Assembly: GCA_035500235.1 (NCBI GenBank)
Contig: DATJXK010000177.1
Span: forward strand, 1-62,999
Source of the DNA: Pseudomonadales bacterium
GTDB lineage: Bacteria; Verrucomicrobiota; Verrucomicrobiia; Limisphaerales; UBA11358
Length of the DNA stretch: 62,999 nucleotides
Direction: 5' to 3'
The notes under the pieces were generated by a model. The model saw only the letters and a program-made list of their open reading frames with translations. It ran no database searches and was not told the DNA's origin. This document shows positions 3,573-56,810 of the stretch, one piece after another. A program made the position numbers and the translations under genes. The first letter of the stretch is position 1; every line of letters starts with the position of its first letter.

Positions 3573-5219
3573 TTATAGTGACCTGACACGGTAGAAACGG
3601 GCCGGATAGTTGGTCCACTGGTAATCAATGAAATGAAATGTTCCGTTGACAATACCGCCATTGGTAATCGCGTTCGTCTCCAGCGAAATCCAGTCTGGAT
3701 AAATCAAGTCTGTCGTAGCATCGACAATAAAAGGCCAATCAGCCCCGCAAATATTAAATCCAAACTCGTTGGATTTGAAACCGAAGTTTGGGTCGACCTG
3801 GATCTGCGCGTTCCAAGGCGGAAGCGGAAGAGGCGTAAAAGAAATATAGTCCGGATTAACCCCTCCATTGCCTCCTGAAAAGATGACAATGTTTGTTGGC
3901 CCGGGCCCGAGAGGAATTGTGAGTGTCGAATCTCCGGCAAATGAGCTCCATCCGCCGGTATTGAGGGTATTAATATACGAATAATCCTGGCCATTCACGG
4001 TGATTCGCAATTTGGTGCCATCGCCCTGGGTGGCAAAATGAACATCCATTGAATTCAATCCGCCGTGGGGGCCGCCGTCGACAGTGTTCAATTCAAAAAA
4101 AGTATTGGTAGTTAGATGCATATTCTGCACGCACCAACCATCCCACGCGGCGCCATCCCGGGTGAAAATTGAGCCGTTGCCAACCGTGCCATTGGTGACG
4201 GCGTAAATAGTAGTGTTGGTTGTGGGCGACGGCACCGGGCCATTGGCCGGCGGCCCATTTGTGGTCTGGACGACAGTCAGGATATTGCCGTTGCTGTCGA
4301 AGTTAAGCAGGTCAACGCAAATAGAACGCAAGCAACCGTTATCGGAAATGGCCTGGTTGTGATAGAACTGATACCATTGGCCGTGGAATTCCACAGCCGA
4401 GCCCTGGCTGGTGCTGCACCCGGTGGAAGACAGATAGACGCCTTTCGATGTCCACGGCCCCATCACATTGGTAGAGACGGCATATTCCAGTTGATTGAAG
4501 TTGGGGCTATTATCGGCGTAAGTGAGATAGTATAAATTGTTTCGCTTGAATACCCACGTACCTTCGTGGAAATCATTGAGGTTCGTGACAGCCTGGGGCG
4601 TTCCACTGATCGAAATCATATCCGGGTTCAGTTTGGCAACGGTGCAATTCCCGCCGCCGCCATAAAACAAATATGCCTGGCCATCGGTATCGACAAACAC
4701 ATCGGGATCAATCATCGAAAAACCGCCCTCGCCCTGGATATAATTCGTGAGCGGCGTGAAATCCCGGCCGGGGCTTAGACTGGTGGCGACGCCGATTCTC
4801 CAGGTGTTGTTCCAATTGGCATCGCTGGGATCGCTGGGATGCGGAAAATAGAAATAATATTTTCCGTTGGCATAGGCGCAATCCGGCGCCCACATAAACC
4901 CGCCGGGCGGGCCGCTCCAAGCCACCTGACTGGAGCGTAAAATCTCTCCCTCGTCACGCCAGTGAACCATGTCCGCCGTGGAAAAGACATGATAACGGTC
5001 CATCAAATTGCAGCCTTGCGGCGGGTCAATGTCGCGCGATGGATAAACATATAACCGTCCATCCGACCACACATGCGCGGCAGGGTCCGCGGTATAAATG
5101 CTGGTAATAAATGGGTTGCCGCCAAAACAGGTCATCGCCGTGGACGTTATCACAACCGATATGAGCAAAAGAGAGAGAGACTTTAACCTGGAACGATGAG
5201 TGTGGTGACTATTTAACAT
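3573..5219 (-). CDS. GH43 glycoside hydrolase (xylosidase/arabinofuranosidase type) with CBM6-like module and C-terminal FYRV domain
   Basis: 548 aa with a signal peptide. GH43 propeller motifs: YTADPAAHVWSDGRLYVYPS, MWAPDCAY, IDPDVFVDTDGQAYLFYGG and HEGTWVFK. Sugar-binding-like module: LRITVNGQDYSY..GGWSSF. The last 82 aa (3573-3821) end in ARFYRVRSL. Confidence 0.85.
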   Translation of the reverse strand: MLNSHHTHRSRLKSLSLLLISVVITSTAMTCFGGNPFITSIYTADPAAHVWSDGRLYVYPSRDIDPPQGCNLMDRYHVFSTADMVHWRDEGEILRSSQVAWSGPPGGFMWAPDCAYANGKYYFYFPHPSDPSDANWNNTWRIGVATSLSPGRDFTPLTNYIQGEGGFSMIDPDVFVDTDGQAYLFYGGGGNCTVAKLNPDMISISGTPQAVTNLNDFHEGTWVFKRNNLYYLTYADNSPNFNQLEYAVSTNVMGPWTSKGVYLSSTGCSTSQGSAVEFHGQWYQFYHNQAISDNGCLRSICVDLLNFDSNGNILTVVQTTNGPPANGPVPSPTTNTTIYAVTNGTVGNGSIFTRDGAAWDGWCVQNMHLTTNTFFELNTVDGGPHGGLNSMDVHFATQGDGTKLRITVNGQDYSYINTLNTGGWSSFAGDSTLTIPLGPGPTNIVIFSGGNGGVNPDYISFTPLPLPPWNAQIQVDPNFGFKSNEFGFNICGADWPFIVDATTDLIYPDWISLETNAITNGGIVNGTFHFIDYQWTNYPARFYRVRSL

Positions 5220-5391: not shown

Positions 5392-8073
5392 ATGAACCCA
5401 CCCAATAGCGAATTAAACCGGAGGAAATTCATTTCGACCCTGACTACAGCCACGGGCTTTCTGGCGTTTGGCCTGGGTTCGGCTACTTCTATCACACTGG
5501 CGGACGAGAACGGAATACGTGCGACGGGCAAGAGAATCGGAATATCCAATGAAGCGTTCAAAAAGGCACGGCAACGCGCCGAGAAACTGGCCGGGCAAAT
5601 GACGCTGGACGAAAAAATCAGCCAACTGGGGGCACAGGCTCCCGCCATCGACCGATTAAATGTGCCGGGATATAATTACTATACTGGCGAAGCGCTACAC
5701 GGTTTGCTGCGGAGCGCACCGGTGACTTCTTTTCCCGTACCGCTGGCATTGGCAGCATCGTGGAATCCTGAACTTTTTCTCAAGGTTTATACGGTCGTCT
5801 CGGACGAAGCGCGGGCTTACGACAACCGCGACAAGAACGGGTTAAGCTATTATTCGCCGATAACACTCAACCTGCATCGCGACCCGCGCTGGGGACGTTG
5901 TTGCGAAGCGCCGGGAGAAGATCCCTGCCTGGCAGCAACCGTTGGGGTGCAGGTGATACGCGGCATGCAGGGCGATAATCCAGATTACCTTAAGACCACG
6001 GCCTGCTCGAAACATTTTGTCTGTAATAACACGGACAACGACCGTACGTCGGTTTCCGCGCCGGTGGATCCCCGCAGTTTTTGGGAATACTATACCCGCG
6101 CCGAGTGCGCCATGGTATTGGAAGCAGACGTGTTTTCGGTGATGGGCGCTTACAACGCGATGAATGGGATTCCCTGTTGTGCCAATCCTTTTTTGCTGAC
6201 GGACCTTTTGCGAAGCCGCTGGGGATTTCGCGGCTACGTGACGTCTGATTGCGATGCCATAGACAATATCTATGACCCGCATCATTATGCCGCGAGCCTG
6301 CCGATCGCATCGGCCATGGCCGTCGAGGCCGGCTGCGATTTAAATTGCGGCGGGACATTGCAAGCGAACCTGAAGGAAGCGGTGGACCAGGAATTAATCG
6401 GCGAGGAAGAGATCACGACGTCCGTGGTTCGGCTTATGACGGTACGTTATTTAATGGGACTCTTTGATGCTCCGGCCAAAGTTCCGTACACCCAGATTCC
6501 CTTCGCAGTGGTGGATTCGGAAGCGCATCGCGCGCTGGCGCTGGAAGCGTCCCGGCAATCGCTGGTGCTACTGAAAAACGAGTCGCAATTTTTGCCGTTG
6601 GACAAGACAGTTATAAAGAAAATTGCCGTTGTTGGCCCGCTGGCCGGGCTTTGCCAACTGGGCGGATACAGCGGTGCGCCGATCGTGCGCGTATCTCCTT
6701 ATGAAGGGATTGCCAATCATCTGGGCGTCGAGGTGTTTAGCCCGAATGTTTCGGCGGCGAAAAAAGTCGCCACAAGCGATAACATCCGCCTGGAATCTTC
6801 CTCAGAAGGGGAATCGAACCTGGGTTTCATCGAGAACAATGCGTGGGCGGAATTTCCGAAAATGAATTTCAACGGCAAGACCGCGTTCGAAGCGCGGGTG
6901 TCGAGCTACTCGAACGGCGGGCGTATTGAAGTCCACCTAGACTCGTTGGATGGACCGCTGGCCTGCACCCTGACTGTGCCGCATACGGGCGAATGGCAGA
7001 ACTGGACGAACGTCACTGCGCCGCTTGAGAATATCAGCGGCGAGCATTCTGTTTTTATGCGGTTTCTCGGAGGTGATGGATGGCTTTTGAACGTGGAACG
7101 GTTCCAACTCAATCCCGTTGTTCAGCCGGCGCCGCAACCGGGCCGCCCGCAGGTTATCTTCGCGCAAGGATGTTCTGCGACGGGGAAAAAGGACGATAAA
7201 ATGTTCCAGGAAGCCGTGGATGCGGCGCGGGGCGCGGATGTGGTCGTGCTGGTTTGTGGCGTCACTGAAGACGTGGATCGCGAAGGAGTTGATCGTGAGA
7301 AGCTTGGGTTGTCCGGCGTGCAGCCGGAACTGGTCCAGGCGGTTTATGCCGCCAATCCAAAGACTATTTTGGTCGTCTCCAGCAATAATACCGTGGCCAT
7401 CGAATGGGAGCAGCAAAACCTGCCGGCGATCCTGTGCGCCATTTGCGCCGGACAATCGCAAGGCACAGCAATCGCTGAAGTTCTGTTTGGGGATTACAAC
7501 CCGGGCGGTAAATTGCCGTGCACCTGGTATCGTTCGGAAGAACAGTTGCCCCCTGATCACGATTACGACATCCATAAGGGACGAACCTACATGTATTTTG
7601 GCGGCGACCCGCTGTATCCCTTTGGTCATGGCCTCAGCTATACGACGTTCGCTTTGAGCCAGCTTCAGTTGGATGGCGCGACGCTTGAGCCGGATGGCAA
7701 GGTCAATGTCTCGGCGACTGTCGCCAATACGGGAAACCGCGCGGGGGCTGAAGTGGTCCAGCTTTACATCACGCCACCGGCATCGCCGGTGAAACGGCCC
7801 ATCAAACAACTGGTTGGTTTTCAGCGGGTGGAATTGCAGCCGGGTGAACAAAAGAAGATCACCTTTGAAGTGCCGTTTACCGAGCCGGCGTTTTGGTACT
7901 GGGATGATGGCGCCCGGAAATTTGCCTGTCAGCCGGGCGTGGCCAAAGTGCTGATTGGCAATTCGTCCGCTAATATTTCGTTGAACGGGGAACTTACGTT
8001 ACAGGCAGCGGAGGCAGCGCCGTCGGGGCCGGAAATGCTCCAGACGGTGGCGGTGAAATCGAGTGTCGCCTAA
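5392..8073 (+). CDS. GH3 beta-glucosidase/beta-xylosidase with twin-arginine signal and an inserted CBM6-like module
   Basis: 893 aa. Tat motif NRRKFISTL. GH3 motifs KHFVCNN and GYVTSDCDAI (nucleophile Asp). Insertion at about 6784-7146: RIEVHLDSLDGPLACTLTVPHTGEWQNWTNV..FMRFLGG. Fn3-like tail: VQLYITPP..VGFQRVEL. Confidence 0.9.
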   Translation: MNPPNSELNRRKFISTLTTATGFLAFGLGSATSITLADENGIRATGKRIGISNEAFKKARQRAEKLAGQMTLDEKISQLGAQAPAIDRLNVPGYNYYTGEALHGLLRSAPVTSFPVPLALAASWNPELFLKVYTVVSDEARAYDNRDKNGLSYYSPITLNLHRDPRWGRCCEAPGEDPCLAATVGVQVIRGMQGDNPDYLKTTACSKHFVCNNTDNDRTSVSAPVDPRSFWEYYTRAECAMVLEADVFSVMGAYNAMNGIPCCANPFLLTDLLRSRWGFRGYVTSDCDAIDNIYDPHHYAASLPIASAMAVEAGCDLNCGGTLQANLKEAVDQELIGEEEITTSVVRLMTVRYLMGLFDAPAKVPYTQIPFAVVDSEAHRALALEASRQSLVLLKNESQFLPLDKTVIKKIAVVGPLAGLCQLGGYSGAPIVRVSPYEGIANHLGVEVFSPNVSAAKKVATSDNIRLESSSEGESNLGFIENNAWAEFPKMNFNGKTAFEARVSSYSNGGRIEVHLDSLDGPLACTLTVPHTGEWQNWTNVTAPLENISGEHSVFMRFLGGDGWLLNVERFQLNPVVQPAPQPGRPQVIFAQGCSATGKKDDKMFQEAVDAARGADVVVLVCGVTEDVDREGVDREKLGLSGVQPELVQAVYAANPKTILVVSSNNTVAIEWEQQNLPAILCAICAGQSQGTAIAEVLFGDYNPGGKLPCTWYRSEEQLPPDHDYDIHKGRTYMYFGGDPLYPFGHGLSYTTFALSQLQLDGATLEPDGKVNVSATVANTGNRAGAEVVQLYITPPASPVKRPIKQLVGFQRVELQPGEQKKITFEVPFTEPAFWYWDDGARKFACQPGVAKVLIGNSSANISLNGELTLQAAEAAPSGPEMLQTVAVKSSVA

Positions 8074-8189
8074 GGACCGGCGTAGCGGGGGCTCATATTT
8101 GTGGCACTCTGCCGAAGCGCCGCTACGATCCGTCCTCGCCGAGGGTACAGTGTGGCAGGCGAGGATGAGAATGAGCATGACGATGATCT

Positions 8190-8480
8190 GCCCCAGGGGG
8201 GACCCCTTCCGTAGGCTTCCAAAGATCGGTTTATAGTTGATGGTTGAGAGTTGAGTGTAAGGGGAAAGTTTGATGACTGCAAAACTTGCGGGCAGGGCGC
8301 CTGCCCTACATCCCCGCCCCCCTTCCATAGGCTTCCGCAGCCTTCCGGAACATCAAATTACAAGGGTTTTTGCATTAGGCAAAGGTAGGTTGAGCGCGAT
8401 CTCCGAGCGTGCCGCCCCACCCCCGGGGGGTCTTGCTTAGGCTTGCATAGCCTTGCCTAGGGTTGCCTGGGCTTGCACGC
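8190..8480. repeat. Cluster of degenerate GC-rich short repeats (CCCC..CTTCCRTAGGCTTCC / CTTGCTTAGGCTTGC units) and the GGGCAGG-GCG-CCTGCCC hairpin
   Basis: Copies lie at 8203-8220, 8317-8348 and 8431-8478, with a hairpin at 8290-8306. No credible ORF is present. Confidence 0.5.
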
Positions 8481-8612
8481 GTTTGCCACCCACACGAAAG
8501 GAAAAAATGATTCTTTTTTTCTGAAAAACCCTTTAAAAGGTTTGAGAAGGCTTTAGAAGCCTTCGGTTCGAAAGGTGGACGAACTGATTTGTTCTCACCC
8601 CTCACCCTTGAT

Positions 8613-8637
8613 CCCTCTCCCCGTTGAGGGGAGAGGG
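8613..8637. repeat. GC-rich palindromic element CCCTCTCCCC GTTGA GGGGAGAGGG
   Basis: Perfect 10-bp stem in the gene-free region. Its left arm begins ATCCCTC, like hairpin copies G and H. Confidence 0.5.
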
Positions 8638-8818
8638 TGACCCTTCTTGGCCAAAGGCGCTACGAAGGACAGGCGAGAGACACGCGTGTCATGCCTGTTC
8701 CACTATATGTCAAAGAACGCAACGGGTATTTTACCACGGAACGTTTAGGTCGGAAGAGAAACTTGACTCCTAGTTGTTCACGCATTTTGTTTGTATTCCA
8801 TGGCAAATAAAATAAAAA

Positions 8819-8935
8819 GTCCCGGAGGGGACGGCAGAACCAGGTGTTTCTTTCGTCCCTGTGGTGACTCGAACGGTTTGGCTGGACCTTTCCCCAGCAC
8901 TAAAGTGCTGGGCTATTTTCAATTGTCCCTATGAT
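8819..8935. repeat. REP-like composite element (GTCCC GGAG GGGAC .. CCCAGCAC TAAA GTGCTGGG CTATTTTCAATTGTCCCT)
   Basis: Two perfect small palindromes lie at 8819-8832 and 8893-8912. From memory, the GTGCTGGGCTATTTTC..GTCCCT arrangement resembles intergenic repeat elements common in Planctomycetota/Verrucomicrobiota genomes. Only one copy is in this window. Confidence 0.4.
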
Positions 8936-9075
8936 CGACGACCGCGACGCATGCAACTGTAGTTCAAACCTCCCTGGCTTTTTAAGAATGGCTTCTGGAA
9001 CAGGGTGTTACCAGAGCTGGTGATCTTTTGCCTTAACCTATTCGCTCGCTGGGCGGAAGGCCCGGCGACCGCAGA

Positions 9076-10011
9076 TCATTTGTTGTAATACGTGGCGTGG
9101 GAAAAGAGCCACGCACTGTCGGAACCGGCATTGCCATTGATCTTTAAATACGAATTGTGCCAGGGGTGAAGCGACACGTGGCCGTCGGCAAAGGCGAAGG
9201 ACGTGGCAGCACCATGATTGGCCGCCGGCCGGTCCCCAATGGTTTGTCCCTGGCCATTTGGCCCGGGGGTACCGGAAAGTCCGAAGACGAGAAAGAAGCC
9301 GTCGTTCAAGCTCAGCGGATTTTCGTCCAAAAAGGTGAAACAATCCGAAGCACTTAAGCCTCCCCGGAAATCACTGTATTTTCTGAAGATGGCAAACGCG
9401 CCACTGCCGACTTCAGACGCATAATCCTTCGATTCAAAAAGTGTCGTGCCGCAGTAACCATTTTCGGAACAGGAACGGACGCGATGCTGATGCGAAACAG
9501 GGTCGATACCCAAAACATCCGCAGGGCAGACATAACTGCCGGGGGTTTTCATATAAGGCCCGATCGAGCCATTGATGGTTTTGCCGGAGACCGGATCCAC
9601 CGGCGGCCCAATGCCCAGAAGCGCAAGGTTGGTAGAAGCCCCAGCGGGGTCGTCTGTGGGACTGGATGATCCGTTTATAGTTCCCATGTAACCAGCCACC
9701 CAGTTCGGATCACTTCTGCCTAAGCCGATGGGATCAGGGCTGGGATAAACGATGCCACCGGACAGGAGACCTTTATGGCCTTCATTTCCAGGCAGTGCGT
9801 CACTGTTATCGCCCGCATAAATGATACTGGCGGTCTGCAATTGCTTCATGTTGTTGAGGCAATAGGTCGCTTTGGCGCGTTGCATGGCCTGCTGCAGGAC
9901 CGGCAAAAGGATCGCGGCCAGAATGGCGATAATGGCAATGACAACCAGCAATTCAATCAGAGTGAATGCGCCCCTGCGAACCCGGCGATGACTGACAAAT
10001 AATAACTTCAT
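9076..10011 (-). CDS. Prepilin-type N-terminal cleavage/methylation protein of the H-X9-DG (DUF1559-like) family, pseudopilin 1
   Basis: ATG at 10011 gives [47 protein letters not shown]. The track start at 10017 is GTG. The C-terminus has [15 protein letters not shown], which is H-X9-DG. It lies 27 nt downstream of a 15-bp hairpin that follows the giant lectin gene. Confidence 0.9.
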
Positions 10012-10038
10012 AATCACTGACTACTATTTTCTAACGAG

Positions 10039-10072
10039 CTTCTTTGGCAGCCGGAAACGGCTGCCAAAGAAG
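10039..10072 (-). terminator. Intercistronic stem-loop between giant lectin 1 and pseudopilin 1 (attenuator/processing/stability element; not a canonical terminator)
   Basis: CTTCTTTGGCAGCCG GAAA CGGCTGCCAAAGAAG forms a perfect 15-bp stem with a GAAA tetraloop. It lies 18 nt after the stop at 10091 and 27 nt before the ATG at 10011. No U-tract follows on the minus strand. Confidence 0.55.
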
Positions 10073-10090
10073 TATCAACCACGGTCGTTC

Positions 10091-13000
10091 TTATTGGTGA
10101 ATCTGCACCAGATAGAAGCGATGGTTTACAGAGAGCGGATCGCTCACGGTCTGCACAGTATTATTACCGCTGATGGACGCGCCCAAAGGTGTCCACGCCG
10201 GATCCATCAGGTTATTTTTGTATTCGACCTGATAGGTCCATCCGGTCTGAGCAAAGAATGACAAGTGAAAGCTGCCGCCGCTAACACTCGTGGTGACATA
10301 GGGAGAGGGCGACGTGGGGGTCAAGAGGAGGAAGTTGACGTTCACTTCCTGTTCGCCGTTGACCGTGGTGCCTTGCAATTGCAGCGTCTGTTGATTGCCA
10401 GTCAGCGTGACTTTGGCAGGATTGCCATTGGCATCGTTGAGCATGACCCACTCGTAACTGGACCAACCCCCTAATGGGATGGAGAAGGTGCCCAGGGCGC
10501 GGGTGGTCTGAGACGGGGTTTGGTAACCGGCGGTCAGGATAGCGAGTCCGGCGTGAGTAGGCGCGGCGCCTTCAGCAAACCGTCCGATGACATTGTAAGT
10601 GCCCGCTGGATAATGGCGGGTATAATTGGCCCAGGAATCCTGGCCGAAGGAGCCCATGGCGTAATCGGTACCGGACGCGAATTGGGCCCTGGGCAAATCA
10701 CCCGAGGTTTGGTCGGGGAAATTGATGCCATTATTCGGGCGGTAAGCGTAAGGCCGGGAGAACGCATTGGGATCGGCTTCCAGCATATCGACGCCGGCCG
10801 TGCTTCCGAGATTGGCATAAGCATCAACCGAGTTATCGAAGAACTGGCCAGTAACTCCGCCACTGGTATAGTCGTAATCTTCGCCTTCCAACTGATAATC
10901 AGAAGCGCTGAAGGTGGCGAAGGAGTTGGTGTAAGCTGTGGTGCCCACGGAATCCGTCAGCACGACAATAGCGGTGTAGAGCTGATTCGTTGGAATTGCG
11001 CAGCTCACAGTAGAAGCAAACGCAGAGCCGCTAATGGTCAAACCGGACTGCTTCACGCCATTCAAATACAGCGAGATATTACCGGCAGTAAAGCCGACCG
11101 AAGAATTCGCCGTGAAACTCACGGTATTCGACGGCTGGAACATAGCGGTGCCATCCGGGCTGAAGTTGCTGACAAATGGCGGCGGATTATTATTCAGGTT
11201 GGCCGGCACGAGCATGTAGAAGTTCAGGTTACAACCTGCGTTGATAAACGACATTCTCAAGGTCTGCAGCACGTTGTTGGTACCGGCAAAGCGGGCGGGA
11301 TAACCGCCAGAATTCATGACCGGGCTCCAGGTGTATTTTTGCCAGTTACCCGTGGCGGGCGCGTTAAAGGTGCCCAATTGCGACAGGGTTTGATTGGCTG
11401 ATCCGTAACCACTGGTGACCAGGCTAAAGCTGCCGGCATTGGCCGTGGCATTACCGTTACCATTCGCGGACCGGACATAGATATTATATACTCCGGCGGG
11501 ATAATGCCGGGTGTAATTTCCCCATTGGCCACCCGAGGTAAAGCCAATGTCGAAGTCGATAAACGGAAGGTCGTCAATGGGATTGGTGGTATTGAGGTAA
11601 GACAGGCGAGGAATATCGCCATTGGGTTCAGTATTGAGGTTGGCGTCATCGCCGACAGTTCCACGGCTGTAGGAATTATGGCCCGGCCCACCCTGGCAGT
11701 ATGAATCGATATTTTCCACTCCGTTGTAGCCAAAATAAGCATTGGTTTGCGGATTATCGAAATAGCCACCGCCATTGTAGTCCCAATCTTCGGCTTCCCA
11801 TGTGTAATAGTTGGGATTAATGGTATCAAACGAAAGGGTGGCTGTGCTGCCATTGTTGGCACCGTCCGTGATAAGGAAGGTGAGCGAATAAACGGCATCT
11901 GTGGTCAACAGGAAGCTGACGCTTTTGTTGGTTGAATTTCCGGTGACAGTCAACCCGCTGGAGGGGGTGAGCGTTTGAGAGAAAGCGCCTCCCGTAAGGC
12001 TGTTTCCCTGGACTTCGACAACGATGTTGTTAACGCCGTTGCTGGAGATAACAGAACAATTAAAGGTGTTCGTTTGCTGGAATTGATAGGTACCATCGGG
12101 GAATTCGTTAGTTACGTAACCCGCACCGACCGGGGGAATATTGGTATTGAGCGGGAGCAACATGAAGAAGTTTTCATTACAATTTCCGCCATCAATGGTC
12201 ATGCGCAAGGTTGACGCGGTACCATCATTGGGAACGGTCAGCACCGCGGGACTGCCGGTGCTATCCACAAGAGAGTACCAACCGTAAGTCTGCCAGCCGG
12301 TCGATTTGACGGAATAGTAGTAAGGCCCCGAGTTGGCAAACGAAGCGGTACCAGCGACGACGGAGATATCACCGGCGTTGCTTTGGGGGCCGTTGCCGTC
12401 AGCGGCGCGCACGAATACGTTGTACTGCCCGGGAGGATAGTGGCGGGTATAGTTACCCCAGTTACCACCGTTATTGAAACCGAGATCGTAATCTGATTTG
12501 CCCGAACCCATGTAGGGCAAGCGCGGAACATCACCGGCGCCTTCGGTCTCCAAACCTTGAGGGCGATAGTCTGAGTTTCCTTGTCCGGGAGAAGTGTTGT
12601 TGTAATCCACTCCTGAGGTGGAGGCCTTGCCGGCGTAAGCATTGGTTTGAGGATTATCCACGAACAACCCGGCGATGCTATTGCTGGTAAAATCGAAATC
12701 TTCCGCTTCCCAGGTGTAGGCCGGCGAAATGGTGTCAAAGGAAAGGTTGTTGGTGGTGGAAGCGCTATTGATATCCGTCACGATAATCTGAGCGGCATAG
12801 AGCGTGTTGGTGATTAACGGAGCGGTAACATTTTGATTATTGGCGTTGCCGGTAATGGTCAACCCGCTGGAACTGGTCAGCGTTTGTGGAAAACCCTGCA
12901 CGCCAAACACGGTGGTGGGCGTGAGCTTTACGGAAACGTTGGCGATGCCAGCCGAGGACGCAGCGGTGAACGTCAGTGTTTTGGAATATTGGAACTGGTA

Positions 13001-13135
13001 TGAGCCGTTGGGAAATGCTCCTGAGATAGTTGGCTGAGCAATAGCACTCTGACCGAAGAAGGCCAGGGCTGCCACGAGGCCTACTGAGGATGCAAAGGAT
13101 TTCATTTGCGAAATAAATGGATGGTTCTTTTTCAT
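10091..13135 (-). CDS. Giant secreted non-catalytic protein: 3 x (Ig-like + CBM6/35-like module) + C-terminal FY.. domain
   Basis: 1014 aa with a signal peptide (SVGLVAALAFFGQSAIAQ). Three tandem ~300-aa modules lie at about nt 13033-12146, 12145-11198 and 11197-10316. Each has WEAEDFDF / WEAEDWDY / LEGEDYDY and W(G/A)NYTRHYP(P/A)G.YN(V/I). The 69-aa tail (10091-10300) ends in NHRFYLVQIHQ. Confidence 0.85.
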   Translation of the reverse strand: MKKNHPFISQMKSFASSVGLVAALAFFGQSAIAQPTISGAFPNGSYQFQYSKTLTFTAASSAGIANVSVKLTPTTVFGVQGFPQTLTSSSGLTITGNANNQNVTAPLITNTLYAAQIIVTDINSASTTNNLSFDTISPAYTWEAEDFDFTSNSIAGLFVDNPQTNAYAGKASTSGVDYNNTSPGQGNSDYRPQGLETEGAGDVPRLPYMGSGKSDYDLGFNNGGNWGNYTRHYPPGQYNVFVRAADGNGPQSNAGDISVVAGTASFANSGPYYYSVKSTGWQTYGWYSLVDSTGSPAVLTVPNDGTASTLRMTIDGGNCNENFFMLLPLNTNIPPVGAGYVTNEFPDGTYQFQQTNTFNCSVISSNGVNNIVVEVQGNSLTGGAFSQTLTPSSGLTVTGNSTNKSVSFLLTTDAVYSLTFLITDGANNGSTATLSFDTINPNYYTWEAEDWDYNGGGYFDNPQTNAYFGYNGVENIDSYCQGGPGHNSYSRGTVGDDANLNTEPNGDIPRLSYLNTTNPIDDLPFIDFDIGFTSGGQWGNYTRHYPAGVYNIYVRSANGNGNATANAGSFSLVTSGYGSANQTLSQLGTFNAPATGNWQKYTWSPVMNSGGYPARFAGTNNVLQTLRMSFINAGCNLNFYMLVPANLNNNPPPFVSNFSPDGTAMFQPSNTVSFTANSSVGFTAGNISLYLNGVKQSGLTISGSAFASTVSCAIPTNQLYTAIVVLTDSVGTTAYTNSFATFSASDYQLEGEDYDYTSGGVTGQFFDNSVDAYANLGSTAGVDMLEADPNAFSRPYAYRPNNGINFPDQTSGDLPRAQFASGTDYAMGSFGQDSWANYTRHYPAGTYNVIGRFAEGAAPTHAGLAILTAGYQTPSQTTRALGTFSIPLGGWSSYEWVMLNDANGNPAKVTLTGNQQTLQLQGTTVNGEQEVNVNFLLLTPTSPSPYVTTSVSGGSFHLSFFAQTGWTYQVEYKNNLMDPAWTPLGASISGNNTVQTVSDPLSVNHRFYLVQIHQ

Positions 13136-13188: not shown

Positions 13189-13208
13189 TATCCCCGAAAG
13201 CGGGGATA
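13189..13208. promoter_or_regulatory. ATCCCC-loop-GGGGAT hairpin, copy C (TATCCCCG AAAG CGGGGATA)
   Basis: Perfect 8-bp stem, 53 nt upstream of the giant lectin ATG (13135). It is about 260 nt from the previous gene's stop, so it is not a 3'-end element. Confidence 0.6.
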
Positions 13209-19028: not shown

Positions 19029-21278
19029 TTAGTGCTGAGGCACATTGGATGCCTCAAATTGCTGTGGGTCGACAGACATGGCAGAAGGAGGGAACGTAGC
19101 CGGGTCTGAACCGAGTTTCTTATTCGGCGTATTTCCCATTTGAAGTTCCAGTGTGCCGCCGTTCGCCAAATCCGCGTGCCGGAACCAAACCTGATCCTGC
19201 GGCTTGCCATCCAAGCGAATGCTTTGGATGTATTTGTTGTCGCTGGAATTATCACGGCAGACAATGGAAAACTTTTTGCCGTTATGCAAATGGATGGTGA
19301 CCCGGTCAAAAACCGGGCTGCAAATATTGTAAACCGGGACGCCGGGAGTGACCGGGTAGAATCCCATCATCGAAAACACAACAAAGGAACTCATGCCGCC
19401 CCCATCTTCGTCTCCCGGCATCCCCAACGTGGTATCCGTGAACCACGTATTCAACAACATGCGAACCCGTTTTTGGGTTTTCCAGGGCGCTCCCACATAA
19501 TCGTAGATGTAGGGGATATGCAGGCTGGGCTCGTTGCCCATGGAGAATTGGCCGACCATGCCGGTCGAATCCGGAAACTTGGCAAAATATTCGTATTTGC
19601 TCCGGCCAATGCCCGTTCGATAGAACCCGTCCAATTTGGCTTCAGCCTTTTCTGGGCCGCCCATTAAAACAATCAATCCCTGCAGGTCGTGTTGAACATC
19701 CCAGTCGTAGGTATAATCATTATTTTCGGTAGTATAATCACGTCCGCCCTGCCCGCCGGACCAGCCGGGGTCAAACGGCTCAATCCAATTTCCCGATGAG
19801 TCCTTCGGCCACATATGATTTTCGCCCTGGCGAAACAAATTTTTGTAGTCGGCTGAACGTTTTAGGAAGAATTGGTAGTCGGCATCGTTACCAAGATCAC
19901 GCGCGATTTGCGCCGTGCACCAGTCATCGTAGCTCTGCGCCAGGGTAACTGAGATGGCCTGACGCCGTTCGCGCGGATGTACCTGGGGGACAGTTTCAGT
20001 TTCCCCGGGATGCAGGGCGGGCATATAACCATTTTCGTTCAGGAAATCATCGAGGGAACATTTTGGGCCCCGGCGCCAGGGCAGCCAGGTACCTTCGACA
20101 GAGTTTTTGCGTATGCCGGCATAGGCGGTGGTGAGGTCGAAATTGGTAATGCCTTTGCTCCAGACATCCGCAGTCCACGCTGCAAACGGATTGCCCGTCA
20201 TACATTCATGATTGCCCCAGAGCACGGCAAATTCCGGCATCCATCCTGATTGTTCATACATTCGCACGTAAGATTGGATCTTATCTCCTTCCATTTCGGG
20301 ATTCAGGATGGTTTGCAACGGCTCCAAAGCCCGATACGTATCCCAAAGCCAGTTATCTACATAAAAAGGGGTGTTATCCTGTTGCACTTTGTGATCAAAG
20401 GCGCTGTAGTATTGTCCATCCTCGGTGATGCAGACCATTCGTTCATAGCAGCGATATAACGAAGTATAAAAAATCCGTTTCTGGTCGGGCGTGCCTCCTT
20501 CGACTTCTATTTGGCCGAGGGTTTCGCTCCAGCGGTCGCGAGCGTTTCGCTTAATTTTATCAAAATTCCATGTGGAAATTTCCTCTGCCAAATTCTTTTT
20601 GGCCTGGGCAACGCTGATAAAGGAAATGCCGTAACGAAATTCCAATACTTTTTGAGGTTCCCGCGTGGTGATGGTCAGTTGTTTACCGGCGTCGCAGGTG
20701 CTAGTTTTGATCTCAACCGGCGCGCTAAATTCTCCGTACACGTAGGCGTGCATGACGCCGGGCGTGATATCGCTTTGGCTGGTGATATCTTCGACGCCGG
20801 AAATAGTGCCATCAGCATTTCCTGACATACTGCCGCCCTGGCGGTTGGCCAGCAGCACAATAGCTTTGCCGGAAGGAAACGTGAAACGGAAATAACCGCT
20901 ATGCGCCGCCGGTGTGAATTCCGTTTGAACCAGCGAATTGTCAAACCGGACTGAATAGTAGTAAGGAGTTTCAACTTCCTGGTCATAGGCCTGGGGACTG
21001 TTCCATGCGTTCGTGGAATCGTTGCCGGGCATTAACCAAAACAGTTCGCCTAAACGGTGGGAAATAATCGTGAGCGGGAATGAATGGATCTGGTCGTCCA
21101 ATTGGTCATTCCTCACCGGATAAACCCGCACCATGCTATTGGGCAATGAGACGGTGGGCTTGGTGGGTTCAAGCAGCATCCCCTGCCCGCCCATGCTTGG
21201 GTCAACGTATTCCAACTGGGCATGGGCAACGCCAGCCCAACCGGCAATCAAAAGGAAAAACCAAATTCGTTTCTTCAT
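19029..21278 (-). CDS. GH92 alpha-mannosidase
   Basis: 749 aa with a signal peptide. GH92 signatures: GNEPSLHIPYIYDYVGAPWKTQ and GMPGDEDGGGMSSFVVFSMMGFYP. Confidence 0.9.
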   Translation of the reverse strand: MKKRIWFFLLIAGWAGVAHAQLEYVDPSMGGQGMLLEPTKPTVSLPNSMVRVYPVRNDQLDDQIHSFPLTIISHRLGELFWLMPGNDSTNAWNSPQAYDQEVETPYYYSVRFDNSLVQTEFTPAAHSGYFRFTFPSGKAIVLLANRQGGSMSGNADGTISGVEDITSQSDITPGVMHAYVYGEFSAPVEIKTSTCDAGKQLTITTREPQKVLEFRYGISFISVAQAKKNLAEEISTWNFDKIKRNARDRWSETLGQIEVEGGTPDQKRIFYTSLYRCYERMVCITEDGQYYSAFDHKVQQDNTPFYVDNWLWDTYRALEPLQTILNPEMEGDKIQSYVRMYEQSGWMPEFAVLWGNHECMTGNPFAAWTADVWSKGITNFDLTTAYAGIRKNSVEGTWLPWRRGPKCSLDDFLNENGYMPALHPGETETVPQVHPRERRQAISVTLAQSYDDWCTAQIARDLGNDADYQFFLKRSADYKNLFRQGENHMWPKDSSGNWIEPFDPGWSGGQGGRDYTTENNDYTYDWDVQHDLQGLIVLMGGPEKAEAKLDGFYRTGIGRSKYEYFAKFPDSTGMVGQFSMGNEPSLHIPYIYDYVGAPWKTQKRVRMLLNTWFTDTTLGMPGDEDGGGMSSFVVFSMMGFYPVTPGVPVYNICSPVFDRVTIHLHNGKKFSIVCRDNSSDNKYIQSIRLDGKPQDQVWFRHADLANGGTLELQMGNTPNKKLGSDPATFPPSAMSVDPQQFEASNVPQH

Positions 21279-31105: not shown

Positions 31106-31179
31106 TTTTAACTCATTCCCTCCGTCTCCTTTTGGATTCAACGCTTAAAAATACTGGTTATAGTTTTGCGCCAATTTAG

Positions 31180-31995
31180 CTACGGTGATGGCATCAGCGA
31201 ATTCATTCGCTGCAACATGAGCGCAGGGAAATCCCGGCTATCCTGATAGAAATAGATATTCCTGTCCCCATCTGTCTGCCACGAAGTGATCAGACGCATT
31301 TTCGCAATGGGTTCCCATGATGCCGAACCATCGACAAACGATTCATTGCCGCCATCGGGATACATCGAACGGGCGCTGTGATGTTGCGGCAGGTTCACGT
31401 AACATTGCGGATTGCCATAATCCTGCGATACCGGCATGCCCCATCCATTTAATCCTTTCATGACGGCATCCGCGGAAAAGACCCACCATGGTTTGGATTG
31501 GCTCATTTTTCGAGGACTGTTGCCCCAACACCCGCTTGATTCAACCGGATTCACCCAATTGGTATCGCCGCCGAAATATTGGTAGCCTATATTCCATTCA
31601 GTAAAAGCCGGCGCATAGTTGGGAAGGGTCGGCCGTTCCGGGCAACTCCAAACGGTTGGTGCATTGGTGGGCACTCTCAAACCGATGGAACTCAAGCCAG
31701 CGGCATCGCTTATGTTGAGGTCCAGTTGCACAAACGGGAGTTTAGGCCCACTGGTTCCAGAGGTGTTAGCGCGACAAGTAAGAACTAAATCGTTATTATC
31801 GCCAGAATAAATGATCATTCCTGTGGCGAGCTGTTTGGTGTTGCTTAAGCATTCAATACGGAGAGCCCGTTCTTTAGCGGAAGAGAGAACAGGCAATAGA
31901 ATAGCGGCCAAAATGGCGATGATGGCAATGACGACCAATAACTCAATCAAGGTGAAAGCGCGGCGTCTTTCATTTTGTGTTCCGGATATATTCAT
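31180..31995 (-). CDS. Prepilin-type N-terminal methylation-domain protein, divergent H-X9-DG family member, pseudopilin 2
   Basis: ATG at 31995 (cat at 31993-31995) gives [44 protein letters not shown]. The track start at 32118 would overlap the upstream gene. The C-terminal motif is degenerate: [13 protein letters not shown], which is Y-X9-DG instead of H-X9-DG. Confidence 0.85.
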
Positions 31996-32026: not shown

Positions 32027-32054
32027 GCCGTCGCCCCTCTTTCAGGGCGACGGC
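32027..32054 (-). terminator. Intercistronic stem-loop between giant lectin 2 and pseudopilin 2
   Basis: GCCGTCGCCC CTCTTTCA GGGCGACGGC forms a perfect 10-bp stem. It lies 23 nt after the stop at 32078 and 31 nt before the ATG at 31995. The geometry matches 10039-10072, and there is no U-tract. Confidence 0.5.
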
Positions 32055-32077: not shown

Positions 32078-35000
32078 TTATTGGACAGACAAGAGATAGA
32101 AGCGGTGGTTTTGACCAAGGCCGTCGCTCACTGACTGCGTCAGGCCGGTGCCGTTGACCGTGGTTCCCAGCGGCGTCCAGGCAGGATCGTTCAGATCATT
32201 CTTATAAGACACAGCGTATTTGAACCCGGTTTGCGTGGGGAACGAGAGGACAACATTGGTTCCTACGACGGATGATCCCAATTTTACGGTGCCAGCCGGC
32301 ACGAGCATGAAGAAGTTCACACGTTCGAAGCCGTCACCCGTGACCTGCAACGTCTGAATCCCGCTGATAGGAAGCTGGATGTGTGTGCCGGTGTTAGTAT
32401 TCATTAGCGGGGCATATTGATACGAGCCGTAGCTGTTGCCCATGGCCTGGAAGTAACCAATGACGTTCGTAGTTTGCGTCGAAGTACCAGCACCACTGGT
32501 TACCTGAGCACATTGGAACGTGATATTGCTGGTACCGCCGGCTGAAAGCCGGGCATAGACATAGTAATTGCCGGCAGGGAATGTGTGGGTGTAGTTGATC
32601 CAGGCGGTATTCGTCAGGTTGAAGATTTCATAGTCCTGGATATAGGGATTGGCTTGCTGCACCTGCGCATTGGCCGTCCTCGCCCGTTGCGCATCCGCAG
32701 TCACTTGAATGGGAACTATGTTATTGAGGTTCTGGGCGCTCGTGCGGTACACCGCCGGAACGGGGAGCACGTTCAGATTGATGAATTGCGAAGAATAGTC
32801 GATGTCCAAATCACCAGTCTGACCATAATAACTGTTCGTGGCCGGAGCGGAAGTGGGTACCGGACTATCAATATAGCGCAGGTTGCTGTTATTCGGGTCA
32901 GGGCTATTGGCCGGGTCGAAGTCAAAGTCTTCGGCCTCCCAAGTGAAGTTGGTCGAATTGAAGGTATCAAAGCTCACCGTGGTGGTATGCACCTGATTAT
33001 TATTGTCGGTGACAGTAATAACGGCGGTGTAGGAGGAGTTAGGTTGCAGGCCGGGATAGCTGACATTCCAGCTTCCAGAATTACCACTGAAGACCAAGCC
33101 TGATGAAACGTTGACGCCGTTGAGGGTCACTTGAACGTTGGTCGTATTGATGCCGTACGTCGGGCTGCTGGCAACAAACGACAGAGCATTGGTGCCCTGC
33201 TCCAGTAATGAGCCATCGGGATAAACCGAGTCCACGCGCGCCTGGTCGGTACGAGCATTCAACAACATGTAGAAGTTGACGTTGAGACCGTATGCCGCGC
33301 CATTGGGCGTTTCCGTTTGGTTGAAGACCAAATGCGTATCACGGAGAGTATTGGTGCCATTGAGGCTCAATTGCGCCACATTGCCGAAACGGTCTATCAA
33401 CGGGGCATAGAAGTATGATGAATAGCCGCCGCTGGAGGGAATGGCGTAGGTACCAAGGTGCTGGGTGATTTGATTGGAGGTACCCCAGCCACCAACAACC
33501 TGGGAGAACGATGAATAGAGATTGCCCAGGTTAGCGCCGGAAGCGACGCGAGCATACAGGTTATACGTACCCGAAGGCCAGGTGCGGGTATATTGTTCCC
33601 AATGGCCGGCACCGAGGAAGCCGACATTGTAGTCCAGCGTGCCAGAACCGAATTGCCGGCGGGCGGCATCGGTGACAGGCGCAGTAGCGCACGGGTCGTT
33701 GGTGCGGTAGTTCGACATGGTGGCCCCGGCGAATCCGGCCTGGATGGGAGATTGTCCGTTCAATGGGGTGTTATTGCCCGATTCGTCGATGAGAATGTCG
33801 CCCACTTGTCCTTCATAGCTGTTAGCAGCAGGGGTTCTGGGCGGTGTGGGCACTGAATTATCAATAAAGCGATGACCTGTGCCGTTGGGAATCGGACTAA
33901 ACGCAGGATCAAAGTCAAAGGCTTCCGCTTCAAATTGGAAAACAGGATTCCAGGTATCAATGCTCAACTGCGCATTGGCACTGTTGCCGTTATTATCTGT
34001 TACCTGAATGGCCACATTATAGCTTTGGTTCAACTGCAATGTAGGATAGCTGACATTCCACGTCGTCGGGCCGCCGCTGAAGACGAGACCAGAGGAGACG
34101 TTTGTGCCATTAAGGGTCATTTGGATATTGGCGGTGTTGATGTTCGCCGATGAAACGGCGGTAAAGACCAATTTATTGGTCGCTTCAAAGAGGAACGCGC
34201 CATCCGGATAAATACCGGTGATGGCAGGCACGTTGGGATTCACCGGCACGAACATAAAGAAGTTCGCGTTGGCACCGCCGCCAGTAGTCGCACGGAAAGT
34301 AGCCACGCCACCTGCGCCGCCGTTGATTGTGACTTGCGCCAAAGCGCCGCCCTGTCGCAACGGCACCCATTGGAAGCCACCGTTTCCGGTGAAGGTGAAT
34401 TGTCCGACGCGGGACAACGTCTGGTTCAGCGTGCCCTGCCCCGCGGTGACCTGGTCAAAGCTCACGGTAGAACCGCTGGAGGTAGAAAGGCGGGCGTAGA
34501 CATTGTAACTACCCGGCGGGAAAGTCTTGGTATAATTCTGCCATTCGGCGCTCGACCAGTTGCCGACCATGTGACTCGGCACCACGCCGTTGCCAAATCG
34601 CGTGGGCGAGGGCAATTCGCCCGTTGATAACGGAGTCTGCACATTCAATCCAGTGCCATCATCGAAGCGATAAGCATTGAGCTGGTTATCGCCAGTGGAT
34701 TGGCCTTTGTGCGCGTCAACGCCTTCAGTGTAACCATTGCCAAAATAACTATTCGGGTCGCCAGGTACGTTGGTGTAATCCGGGTTGTCAAGGAACATGC
34801 CGTTCGTGAAATCGAATTCTTCGGCTTTGACAATAAAGTTGGTGGGGCTAAACGTGTCGAATGTCACCGTGGCAGAACCAACGAGGCCGAGCGCATCGCT
34901 CGCCGTCATCACCGCGGTCTCGATGGTTTGCTGCGGGAGGCTGTTGTAGTACACCGTCACGTTGGTCGAGCCGGTACCGTTGGTCACATAGGTGCAGGAC

Positions 35001-36094
35001 GAAGAAACGTCTATGTTATTTAGTTTGAGATCGATATTCGTCAGGCCAAATCCGCTGGGAGCGATAGCGGTAAATACGAATTTATTTGTCGCCTGCAGGA
35101 GCGACGTGCCATCTGGATAGGGCCCGCTGATAGAGGGTATCTTGGGAGCAATGGTTTGGCGAATGCCTTCGACGAAGCTCAGCTTGTTTGTCGCGATGCC
35201 TTTATAGAAACGAAAATCCTCCATCCAGCCGTCAAATCCGCGAGCGCCTTTGTAATTTCGATTGCCGACGACGAGCGTGGTGGGATTGCCAAAGGTCTCG
35301 ACCAAGCCGGGAGCAGCAAACTGATTTTGGAGGGCCGCCGCCGCCGTGTCTGAACCGGTATATTGATAGATGTTTGTCCCGTCGTAAACCCAGGCCACAA
35401 AATACCATTTATTAGTGGTGAGATCGCTGGCGTACGTGGTGGTCAGAGTGCCGCCGGCCGTGCTCCCGATGGCGAAAATAAATTGATTCGCCTGCTGGAA
35501 TTTCACGCCGATGGAATTAGCGCTGCCGTCATTCGCGCCCGGCGAGCCTCCCGCGCTCAGCACAAAAGGCCGGGGAAGCACAAAACCAGAGCCGCTCGGC
35601 GCTTTCACCGGCTGGTTAAACCAGAAGGTCACGATGAAATTTGAAACGCTGCCAAAAGCCAGTGCGGGATCTCCTAAATCAGCCGCAGAATTGGCGGCGT
35701 TGGCAGTCGTCGGCGGATTCGGCGCGTTGGCCGGCTGGCTTCCCCCGGCTCCGTTAGTCATGCACAACGTCGCCATCCCGGTCACCAACCCATTTACTCC
35801 CGACCCGGCGGCGCCCTGGAAATCAGTACTCGCACCGGCAGCATTGTATGCGCTCAGGTTGACACTGATGCCCCCGAGCGTTGTGGAGCTAGGGAAGCTC
35901 GTCGTCGCCGTGCCCGGTGCATTGGTAAGGGGGAAAAACAGCAAGTTAACCGGTTGAGCCAGCGCCAGCGTGCTCATCAGGAGGCCGCAAAAAATCAGTG
36001 CGGCCAGCAGCTTCCCGAGGACGGTTTTAAACCATTCATTACTAGACAGAAATGAATGACGGATATCTGAAGAATCAATGGGATCGGTTCTCAT
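32078..36094 (-). CDS. Giant secreted non-catalytic protein: LamG + 3 x (Ig-like + CBM6/35-like module) + C-terminal FY.. domain (paralogue of 10091-13135)
   Basis: 1338 aa with a signal anchor ([18 protein letters not shown]). N-terminal LamG: [27 protein letters not shown]. Three modules carry KAEEFDF / FEAEAFDF / WEAEDFDF and W(Q/E/I)(N/Q)YT(K/R/H)T(F/W)P.G.Y(N/Y)(V/L)YAR. The 69-aa tail (32078-32287) ends in [10 protein letters not shown] and aligns with the tail of 10091-13135. Confidence 0.85.
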
Positions 36095-38367: not shown

Positions 38368-38385
38368 GCCGAGGTTACTTTATAG

Positions 38386-56549: not shown

Positions 56550-56668
56550 TCAATTTGATGGCAGCGTTTCGAATTCAAACAGTCAGGGTCCAAACGGGCA
56601 GATTCTACGTGCATATTGCATCGCTGAAATGATGGACATGATTTGACTATAGGCCTCAGTCGAAAAAG

Positions 56669-56694
56669 TGTCATGTGGCATGAAGTGGCCACAA
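56669..56694. promoter_or_regulatory. Conserved 26-nt box, copy 2 (TGTCATGTGGCATGAAGTGGCCACAA)
   Basis: Matches 49421-49446 at 25 of 26 positions. It lies 119 nt from the LamG giant ATG (56549), upstream of or within the 5' end of the DUF1680-LamG gene. Confidence 0.5.
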
Positions 56695-56810
56695 GGCATA
56701 AACCAAAGTTATGTTATTATCTTCAACGAGTTAATTTCACCTTGAAAGATACCGCTGATATGCCGGATCGATTCTTTAGCACTTATAGAAACAATCTTAC
56801 TCTCTCTAAG

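Follow-up and report, generated by a model that had tools for sequence, protein, structure and literature searches.

A conserved gene cassette of a putative lectin, a hairpin and a pilin-like protein in carbohydrate-degradation loci of Verrucomicrobiia

RESULTS

We analyzed a 62,999-nucleotide stretch of DNA, here called the window (GenBank assembly GCA_035500235.1, contig DATJXK010000177.1, positions 1 to 62,999 of the forward strand), from a bacterium placed by GTDB in the Limisphaerales (Verrucomicrobiota; UBA11358). In this window, a gene for a large exported protein built from putative sugar-binding modules (the lectin) is followed by a hairpin and then by a gene for a protein of the prepilin type (the pilin). 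The arrangement occurs twice, as copy 1 and copy 2, and recurs in related genomes. As shown below, this cassette is real, conserved and previously undescribed, and is built from known kinds of parts.

Lectin and pilin genes are paired across related genomes

We fetched 78 genomic loci with relatives of the lectin, 69 of which contained both the complete gene and the DNA downstream of it and could be scored. In 43 of these 69 loci, an open reading frame (ORF) with the prepilin motif directly followed the lectin gene on the same strand, the motif lying 94 to 398 nucleotides (nt) past the lectin stop codon, versus nine prepilin ORFs elsewhere in the 1.23 Mb of fetched loci. The probability of finding 43 of 69 is approximately 6e-72 at this background rate and 2e-38 at an assumed rate of 5%. 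The original prediction, which had been made from the sequence of the window alone, had pointed out that adjacency might be no more frequent than chance if genes of this pilin family were numerous enough; the counts speak clearly against this.

The two genes have also diverged in step. Pairwise identities among the lectins and among the pilins were correlated (r=0.76; Mantel test, 0/2000), and the top lectin and top pilin homologues were found on common contigs. Similarly, the nearest relatives of the copy-2 lectin and those of the copy-2 pilin came from the same loci (L060, L062, L078, L069 and L065). The nearest lectin and pilin relatives of each window cassette are co-located in this way, and we therefore distinguish at least two old lineages of the cassette, each with its own pilin lineage. 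In summary, as judged from these gene sequences, lectin-pilin adjacency is far above chance and the genes co-diverge.

A conserved hairpin separates the two genes

The hairpin of copy 1, CTTCTTTGGCAGCCG-TTTC-CGGCTGCCAAAGAAG, has a centroid energy of -27.9 kcal/mol (z = -4.4), and 0 of 200 shuffled sequences folded as well. Across the cassettes, the 85 nt past the lectin stop codon had a median folding energy of -33.9 kcal/mol, with z<-2 in 38 of 45, compared with a median of -20.6 kcal/mol and z<-2 in 6 of 42 for the 85 nt past the pilin stop codon and with 2 of 42 for coding segments; on the basis of these two controls, we rejected a generic end-of-gene hairpin. Alignment of 20 hairpins revealed a common 15-pair helix with compensatory double changes in 12 of its 15 pairs. 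In this alignment, 94.8% of the cells were paired, versus at most 55% when the partners were slid (0 of 500 shuffles matched), and G-U cells (about 15) outnumbered A-C cells (about 3). This excess points away from a DNA palindrome and toward an RNA structure on the sense strand; the G-U pairs also disfavor a role as a DNA operator.

As in intrinsic terminators, the stem is GC-rich, but the tails (CTCGTTAGAA in copy 1 and AAACCAAAGA in copy 2) contain no U-tract, and a terminator scan called neither copy's hairpin. A homologous hairpin is also found after lectin genes without a pilin, and a T-tract follows it in 7 of 13 such genes versus 2 of 40 with a pilin (Fisher p=3e-4). The loss of the T-tract where a pilin follows, taken together with the homologous hairpin of the pilin-less genes, suggests a lectin terminator that was made leaky. 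The hairpin thus looks like the lectin gene's own terminator hairpin, lacking the U-tract in cassettes, which would attenuate or stabilize the transcript rather than terminate it. The distance from the end of the hairpin to the pilin ATG (median, 22 nt; at most 40 nt in 35 of 39 cassettes) leaves no room for a separate pilin promoter, and the interval from hairpin to pilin gene showed no promoter-like site.

It could nevertheless be argued that lectin and pilin are two separate genes, the latter being expressed independently, with transcription ending fully at the hairpin or with the hairpin serving as a palindromic DNA site for a regulator. The homology of the hairpin to the T-tract-bearing terminators of pilin-less lectin genes would fit this explanation, as would the conservation of the core sequence CCGGCAGCCGG and the presence of at least four thymines in the 8 nt past the stem in 11 of 40 cassettes. 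However, the gap of only ~22 nt between hairpin and ATG, in which no promoter-like site was found, and the significant depletion of T-tracts where a pilin follows are hard to reconcile with full termination, and G-U pairing together with freely occurring compensatory changes would be expected of RNA rather than of regulator-bound DNA. Clean termination at the hairpin with independent expression of the pilin therefore appears disfavored, and we consider the explanation as a whole very unlikely.

Domain architecture of the lectin

The copy-1 lectin matched no Pfam and no NCBIfam family at E<=0.1 and does not qualify as a member of PF03422 (CBM_6), a family of carbohydrate-binding modules (CBMs). 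It does carry the motifs YTWEAEDFD and WGNYTRHYPxGxYN. Although a self-BLAST of the lectin did not display the repeats, domain-wise alignment of the three copy-1 modules yielded pairwise identities of 39 to 45% for their immunoglobulin-like (Ig-like) parts and of 39 to 47% for their CBM parts. An AlphaFold2 (AF2) model based on a 55-sequence alignment was all-beta, with a predicted local distance difference test score (pLDDT) of 85.3; in its signal region, residues 1 to 32 scored <50 and residues 16 to 27 formed a helix.

Among 22 close homologues, Pfam matches to CBM_6 were found in 12 (best, 3.8e-10), to Big_10 in 9 and to the TcfC E-set domain in 8, with Big_13 also being matched in the Ig regions. 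When a profile of 24 modules (A4) was compared with all PDB sequences, the top matches were solely CBM6/35 modules, with E values from 6.5e-7 to 4e-3 (8zvk, 6.5e-7; CtXyl5A entries 5la2 and 2y8k, 4e-5; then ZgLamC CBM6 5fui, BhCBM6 1w9s, CmCBM6 1uxz, CBM35 2vzp and 1gmm), and the alignments took in the EAED opening as well as the G-W-x-Y…G-Y…R core. A direct search of PDB with the copy-1 lectin sequence returned noise only (E>0.9). Foldseek, queried with the whole 1014-amino-acid (aa) model, returned mostly generic multi-Ig proteins, but also placed the lectin on the CBM6 of CtXyl5A (5la2; probability 1.0, 22% identity over 210 columns) and matched SGBP-B of B. ovatus (6e57) and Sas6 of Ruminococcus (7uwu). 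Within the window, the best non-self match of the module hidden Markov model (HMM) was the Pfam-verified CBM_6 domain of a protein of glycoside hydrolase (GH) family 3, encoded at 5392-8073. Finally, E8, Y30 and Y92 of the module alignment are invariant and N183/N185 nearly so, positions that we take to be those of the CBM6 cleft-A ligand residues.

By sequence and profile comparison, then, the modules are divergent CBM6 modules with an insertion of ~60 residues, an assignment that leans on homologues and profiles because Pfam recognizes no CBM in the copy-1 lectin. Like CBM6/CBM35 modules (5la2, 1w9s, 5fui), they combine a beta-sandwich and an N-terminal EAED-type motif with a 'G-x-W-x-x-Y … G-x-Y-x-h-x-h-R' core and a C-terminal N-x-N/D strand; unlike them, they carry the insertion (DNPQTNAY…YRP…GD.PR) after the first strand. 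Furthermore, these modules are not attached to an enzyme; a stand-alone protein bears them in three copies, with Ig spacers. The CBM6/35-type modules and the CBM-like beta-sandwich that the original prediction had called for are therefore both borne out, the former by the homologue matches, the A4 profile and Foldseek, the latter by the all-beta model and its fit to the CtXyl5A module.

A search of 1.84 billion representatives at E<=1e-3 placed 1272 clusters of 50% identity in the lectin family, and more than 431 homologues of the copy-1 lectin are from Verrucomicrobiia. The named sources of the family are all metagenome-assembled genomes, assigned to Verrucomicrobiia, Limisphaerales or Pedosphaera, from soil and peat. 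The family also has giant members of 2400 to 2800 aa with many more modules (L040, L043, L049, L050, L051, L055 and L048), and these have neither a downstream pilin nor the hairpin.

The pilin-like protein

The gene downstream of the lectin encodes a type IV pilin-like protein of the H-X9-DG family. The copy-1 product matched the N_methyl domain (2e-7) and TIGR02532 (28 bits, versus a cut-off of 16.3) and has a class III signal peptide, with the cleavage/methylation motif and a glutamate at position +5. All 47 homologues examined matched N_methyl as well, and both F16-T-L-I-E20 and H266-X9-D276-G277 were invariant in their alignment (A2). The AF2 model (pLDDT 88.9) consists of a helix (residues 18 to 68) followed by a mixed, beta-rich head of ~240 residues. 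Foldseek retrieved type IV pilins from PDB (1ay2 and 2hi2; probability 0.96 and 0.82), with an E value of only 0.03 and via the helix, and found no structural match there for the head. A solute-binding-protein fold, as the name of PF07596 (SBP_bac_10) might imply, was rejected, since Foldseek matched type IV pilins only.

Membership of the known H-X9-DG families is less clear-cut. The copy-1 pilin scored 15.8 to 16 bits against PF07596 (DUF1559), below the cut-off of 23.3 and over profile positions 1 to 40 only. Of its 47 homologues, 24 matched PF07596 at E<=0.1 and one matched the TIGR04294 model, and JGI annotates relatives as H-X9-DG proteins. The protein thus resembles DUF1559/H-X9-DG proteins (PF07596, TIGR04294) in its class III signal, FTLIELLVV… motif, long helix and C-terminal H-X9-DG, and its subfamily differs from the family at large in falling below the Pfam cut-off and in having a defined, conserved neighbor. 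The original prediction of a prepilin-type H-X9-DG gene accordingly holds for copy 1 on the grounds of N_methyl, motif and model.

The strict H-X9-DG motif is present in 37 of 46 lectin-linked pilins, the copy-2 clade having a longer spacer (…PPHR…FPAGGNEVFVDGSA…), and the heads of the copy-1 and copy-2 pilins have no detectable similarity. In both lectin-linked pilins of the window, alanine occupies position -1 before FTLIE (…RRGA/FT… at 9967-9969 and …RRRA/FT… at 31954-31956, both on the minus strand); the family consensus and the third pilin of the window (see below) have glycine there.

Three pilins 49 to 57% identical to that of copy 1 were looked up in their genomic context, of which one (L084) follows a lectin and two (L082 and L083) do not. 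The L083 pilin is flanked by a two-component system on one side and by an SSF transporter plus GH3 on the other. In L082 (6001-9528), the pilin (50% identity to copy 1) is followed 120 nt on by an 826-aa protein with fn3 and malectin domains, which hints that the copy-1 pilin subfamily pairs with other glycan-binding proteins too, in the opposite gene order.

A C-terminal domain common to several exported proteins

The C-terminal domains of the two window lectins are 55% identical, versus 32 to 42% for the other lectin domains. With an iterated HMM, this lectin C terminus was linked to the C termini of the proteins encoded at 56643-61157, 3573-5219, 52212-56549 and 61177-62931, the linked stretches being 3573-~3800(-), ~60930-61157(+), 52212-~52440(-) and 61177-~61400(-), with E values from 9e-14 to 2e-4. 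The four non-lectin proteins all end in …(R)FYRV/FFKLLV. The non-iterated HMM matched no other window protein, so that the link depends on the iterated profile and carries some risk of profile drift. Pfam has no model for the domain. Counting these links, six exported proteins of the window have this domain of ~70 aa, with the ending …W..L……(R)FYRV / FFKLLV: besides both lectins, they are a GH43, a GH127/LamG protein and two LamG/Ig proteins. The domain probably serves exported proteins in general as a signal for sorting or anchoring, which may be a Verrucomicrobial one, and as such is not the pilin-specific element.

Locus layout and carbohydrate-degradation context

The features of both cassettes are collected in Table 1. 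In copy 1, the lectin stop codon is followed after 18 nt by the hairpin and, 27 nt further on, by the pilin ATG at 10011; in copy 2, these distances are 23 and 31 nt, with the ATG at 31995. Much of this layout had been anticipated by the original prediction. The ORF, its signal peptide and the family scans agree with a 1014-aa exported protein without a catalytic domain; the three repeats of ~300 aa, each an Ig-like part plus a sugar-binding module, are real; and the coordinates and spacing of the copy-1 hairpin and pilin were confirmed, on the minus strand. As for the claim that copy 2 repeats the arrangement, order and spacing do recur, but a strict H-X9-DG motif in the copy-2 pilin does not.

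Table 1. Coordinates of the two cassettes and associated elements in the window
Feature	Position	Strand	Basis
Copy-1 lectin gene; 1014-aa exported noncatalytic putative trivalent glycan-binding protein	10091..13135	-	ORF and translation
Sec-type signal peptide, residues 1-33, …GQSAIA/QPT, no lipobox Cys	13037..13135	-	read from translation
Ig-like domain 1, residues 34-137	12725..13036	-	beta-sandwich in model; homologue domain matches
CBM6-like module 1, divergent, residues 138-332; YTWEAEDFD start, contains WGNYTRHYPPGQYN	12140..12724	-	module HMM 1e-76
Ig-like domain 2, residues 338-440; 41% identity to Ig-like domain 1	11816..12124	-	model, alignment
CBM6-like module 2, divergent, residues 441-650	11186..11815	-	module HMM 4e-75
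Ig-like domain 3, residues 652-744	10904..11182	-	model, alignment
CBM6-like module 3, divergent, residues 745-942	10310..10903	-	module HMM 4e-63
Lectin C-terminal beta domain of ~70 aa, end …HRFYLVQIHQ	10094..10303	-	copy comparison; iterated HMM
Copy-1 hairpin; perfect 15-bp stem, 4-nt loop, no U-tract	10039..10072	-	folding, conservation
Copy-1 prepilin-type H-X9-DG (DUF1559-like) pseudopilin gene, 311 aa	9076..10011	-	N_methyl, AF2 model
Copy-1 pilin motif H266-X9-D276-G277	9181..9216	-	invariant in 47-sequence alignment
Canonical terminator-like hairpin and T-run (GTCCCCTCCGGGAC TTTTTATTTT), ~240 nt past copy-1 pilin stop	8819..8832	-	terminator scan
Terminator-like hairpin between upstream GH43 gene and copy-1 lectin start	13189..13208	-	terminator scan
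Copy-2 lectin, 1338 aa; N-terminal Laminin_G_3, 3 x (Ig + CBM6-like), same C-terminal domain	32078..36094	-	module HMM 1e-32 to 1e-37
Copy-2 lectin C-terminal domain	32081-32290	-	iterated HMM
Copy-2 hairpin; 10-bp perfect stem, 8-nt loop (12 pairs in minimum free energy fold), no U-tract	32027..32054	-	
Copy-2 prepilin-type gene, 271 aa, variant H-X9-DG	31180..31995	-	

The terminator-like hairpin past the copy-1 pilin is likely the end of the two-gene unit, and the one before the lectin likely shields the unit from upstream transcription. Downstream of the copy-2 pilin gene, a GH16 gene starts after 38 nt. The interval of ~1 kb between the GH3 gene and the copy-1 pilin (8074-9075) contains no ORF of at least 150 aa and has terminator-like hairpins on both strands, at 8893-8912(+) and 8819-8832(-). 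Rfam and tRNA scans of the window gave no matches.

The surroundings of the cassettes are rich in carbohydrate-active enzymes (CAZymes): two GH43 proteins, a GH3 with a CBM6, a further GH3, GH92, GH2, a GH95-like DUF5703 protein and an esterase, alongside GH16, GH76, GH125 and GH127-like genes, an aldose epimerase and two-component systems of the HisKA_3/LuxR type. Likewise, the cassette relatives in L079, L081 and L084 lie amid GH31, GH3, GH92, GH35 and DUF5703 genes and the same type of sensor kinase. No SusC, SusD or TonB-receptor family was found among the 30 window ORFs scanned, such that the locus is not a polysaccharide utilization locus (PUL) of the Bacteroidota type. The window combines GH92, GH76 and GH125 (alpha-mannan) with GH16 (SKN1/KRE6-like similarity) and GH3 (beta-glucan) (19029-21278, 30095-31141 and 37306-39801). 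Because this gene mix suggests substrates of the fungal cell-wall type, our guess would be that the window is a glycan utilization island for such material.

A third prepilin-type H-X9-DG gene, at 48404-49300(-), matches N_methyl and DUF1559 (23.5 bits) and has no lectin upstream. It is divergent from a gene for an 837-aa TPR protein (49499-52012) and stands at the head of a same-strand run with genes for a DUF4964/DUF5127/GtaA-like protein, a GH127-like protein, a 724-aa protein, an aldose epimerase, GH125 and GH76. The 724-aa protein of this run, encoded at 41030-43204(-), has a signal peptide and no Pfam family.

DISCUSSION

We propose that the cassette, as a conserved two-gene transcription unit in CAZyme loci of soil and peat Verrucomicrobiia (Limisphaerales/Pedosphaera), would function as a glycan-capture module in which an abundant lectin and a substoichiometric pilin-like partner serve the neighboring enzymes; of the explanations considered, this has the best support, although we see the case for it as about evenly balanced. 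The product of the first gene would be a Sec-exported, noncatalytic and multivalent protein, its three Ig-like spacers each bearing a divergent CBM6, with the C-terminal domain known from secreted glycosidases as its presumed sorting or anchoring signal. Most transcripts would probably end, or be stabilized, at the hairpin and yield abundant lectin, while a fraction would read through into the pilin gene, so that a single promoter could provide much lectin and little pilin. The pilin, with its class III signal, Glu5, long N-terminal helix and large, lineage-specific head, would be processed or handled by a prepilin peptidase and a machine of the type II secretion system (T2SS) or type IV pilus (T4P) type encoded elsewhere. 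Borne by the membrane or by a pseudopilus, it may then serve its cognate lectin as a partner that presents it, anchors it or adapts it for export, and together the two would capture the polysaccharide that the neighboring enzymes degrade. The parts of this scheme that we infer are glycan specificity, location, stoichiometry, lectin-pilin contact, surface display and pilus building.

Several observations weigh against this scheme. Pairing is not obligatory, as for 26 of the 69 lectin homologues no pilin occurs within 8 kb, and pilins ~50% identical to that of copy 1 occur without a lectin (L082 and L083). The copy-1 lectin itself has no Pfam CBM match, and its binding of sugars is a prediction only. 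The heads of the two window pilins are dissimilar, so that any lectin-pilin interface cannot be the well-conserved C-terminal domain, and the co-divergence of the two genes could reflect simple co-inheritance of neighbors. Finally, no secretin, T2SS/T4P ATPase, platform or prepilin-peptidase family was found among the 30 large ORFs of the window, in agreement with the original prediction that it contains no genes for pilus or T2SS assembly.

Lectin and pilin might thus be neighbors by regulation only: an ordinary secreted or surface CBM protein next to an interchangeable T2SS pseudopilin paralogue, one of many scattered over sugar loci, where they could, for example, boost or tune general secretion upon induction. 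Besides the lectins that lack a pilin, this possibility draws on the close pilin relatives in other sugar contexts without a lectin, on the third H-X9-DG gene of the window, which heads a glycosidase operon, and on the huge size of the pilin family (at least 7980 matches in the pilin homologue search, and 67 to 68 paralogues per genome in the literature). It does not readily explain, however, why downstream position, spacing and the modified terminator were kept across two anciently diverged lineages, nor why every lectin lineage retains its own pilin lineage, when paralogues of a generic kind should have been exchanged between loci. We regard mere neighborhood as the main rival to our proposal, possible but rather doubtful.

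In soil, peat, water and gut, PVC bacteria (Planctomycetes, Verrucomicrobia and related groups) count among the major degraders of polysaccharides; to our knowledge, they do not have the SusC/D machinery of the Bacteroidota. The lectin comes close to the surface glycan-binding proteins (SGBPs) of Bacteroidota PULs (SusE/F-like proteins, such as SGBP-B of the B. ovatus MLGUL), and to Sas6 of Ruminococcus, being a noncatalytic, multidomain protein of Ig and CBM-like parts, encoded in a glycan-utilization locus beside enzymes and a sensor. Unlike SGBPs, it comes without a lipoprotein signal or SusC/SusD, has a pilin-like partner and ends in a Verrucomicrobial C-terminal domain. By analogy, the lectin may be a functional counterpart of these proteins.

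Pilin-type systems offer further points of comparison. The Verru_Chthon cassette (TIGR02596-TIGR02600) is likewise Verrucomicrobial and joins a very large protein to prepilin-type proteins; identity with it was rejected, as the lectin has no NCBIfam match and the pilin scored 26 versus 70 bits for protein D and 18 versus 256 for protein C, in the helix only. As mechanistic analogues, the nearest would be the type IVb minor-pilin/secreted-protein pairs CofB-CofJ and TcpB-TcpF, in which a pilin with a large head stands beside an exported non-pilin protein, and PilB and PilC of Streptococcus sanguinis, which are modular pilins fused to a lectin module. In these type IVb and S. sanguinis systems, the pilus machine exports or presents the partner for adhesion, and the genes belong to complete pilus operons; the assembly genes for the present cassette, in contrast, would lie elsewhere, and the pairing is known from genes alone.

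PVC bacteria carry tens to hundreds of H-X9-DG/DUF1559 prepilin-like paralogues of unknown function, with 68 in P. limnophila, two of which are essential (PMC10632474), and which molecules these bacteria use to capture and take up glycans is still described as unknown (PMC12673574). Pilin-type proteins have been tied to, or found co-induced with, glycan acquisition before: a type IV-like pilus locus of Akkermansiaceae, MUL2 (amuc_1099-1102), was reported to be needed for it (PMC13174399), and pseudopilin paralogues were reported in an alginate-induced lyase cluster of a Verrucomicrobial bacterium (Verruconatronum pgaptmp_000050; PMC13274419). MUL2 differs from the cassette in encoding PilM, in having a pilin of the archaeal type and in lacking a CBM repeat protein, and the Verruconatronum cluster differs in being built on lyases; a lectin-hairpin-pilin unit appears in neither report. 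In addition, dextran-binding fibers were reported in Planctomycetes (PMC5394234). The original prediction had claimed that no system of this kind is described. This stands for the specific cassette, in that we found no description of a unit of CBM-repeat lectin, hairpin and pilin in the literature, but is too broad in view of these pseudopilin, pilus and fiber systems (PMC13274419, PMC13174399, PMC5394234).

Such reports raise the possibility of a glycan 'harpoon', in which the pilin docks its cognate lectin, as tip or adaptor, on a retractile fiber of the T2SS/T4P type, and retraction pulls polysaccharide through the secretin into the periplasm, much as competence pili do with DNA. Glu5 and the long helix are compatible with assembly into a fiber, the large head resembles those of minor or tip pilins, and the lectin is multivalent. 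Dextran-binding fibers and periplasmic uptake, their players unknown, have been reported in Planctomycetes (PMC5394234, PMC12673574), as have pilus-dependent glycan uptake in Akkermansia and selfish uptake of laminarin in Pedosphaeraceae (PMC13174399). Yet neither a fiber, nor a retraction ATPase nearby, nor a contact between lectin and pilin is in evidence, and the sharing of the C-terminal domain with ordinary enzymes argues for a general sorting route rather than docking to a pilus, for which reasons we think a harpoon unlikely. By extension, PVC bacteria at large could use a common retractile fiber of the T2SS/T4P type for selfish uptake independent of SusC/D, with the H-X9-DG/DUF1559 paralogues as its adaptor or tip subunits, each specific to a substrate, and with the present cassette as the clearest case; the idea strikes us as improbable.

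The cassette bears on two questions, namely, what role the H-X9-DG pseudopilins play and how PVC bacteria seize polysaccharides. With it, the H-X9-DG family gains its first defined partner, in the form of a tractable two-gene unit. Should lectin and pilin not work together, the cassette would still represent a new family of CBM6-repeat proteins and an example of terminator remodeling upon gene gain or loss. If they do, it would constitute a pilin-based alternative to the surface glycan-binding systems of PULs.

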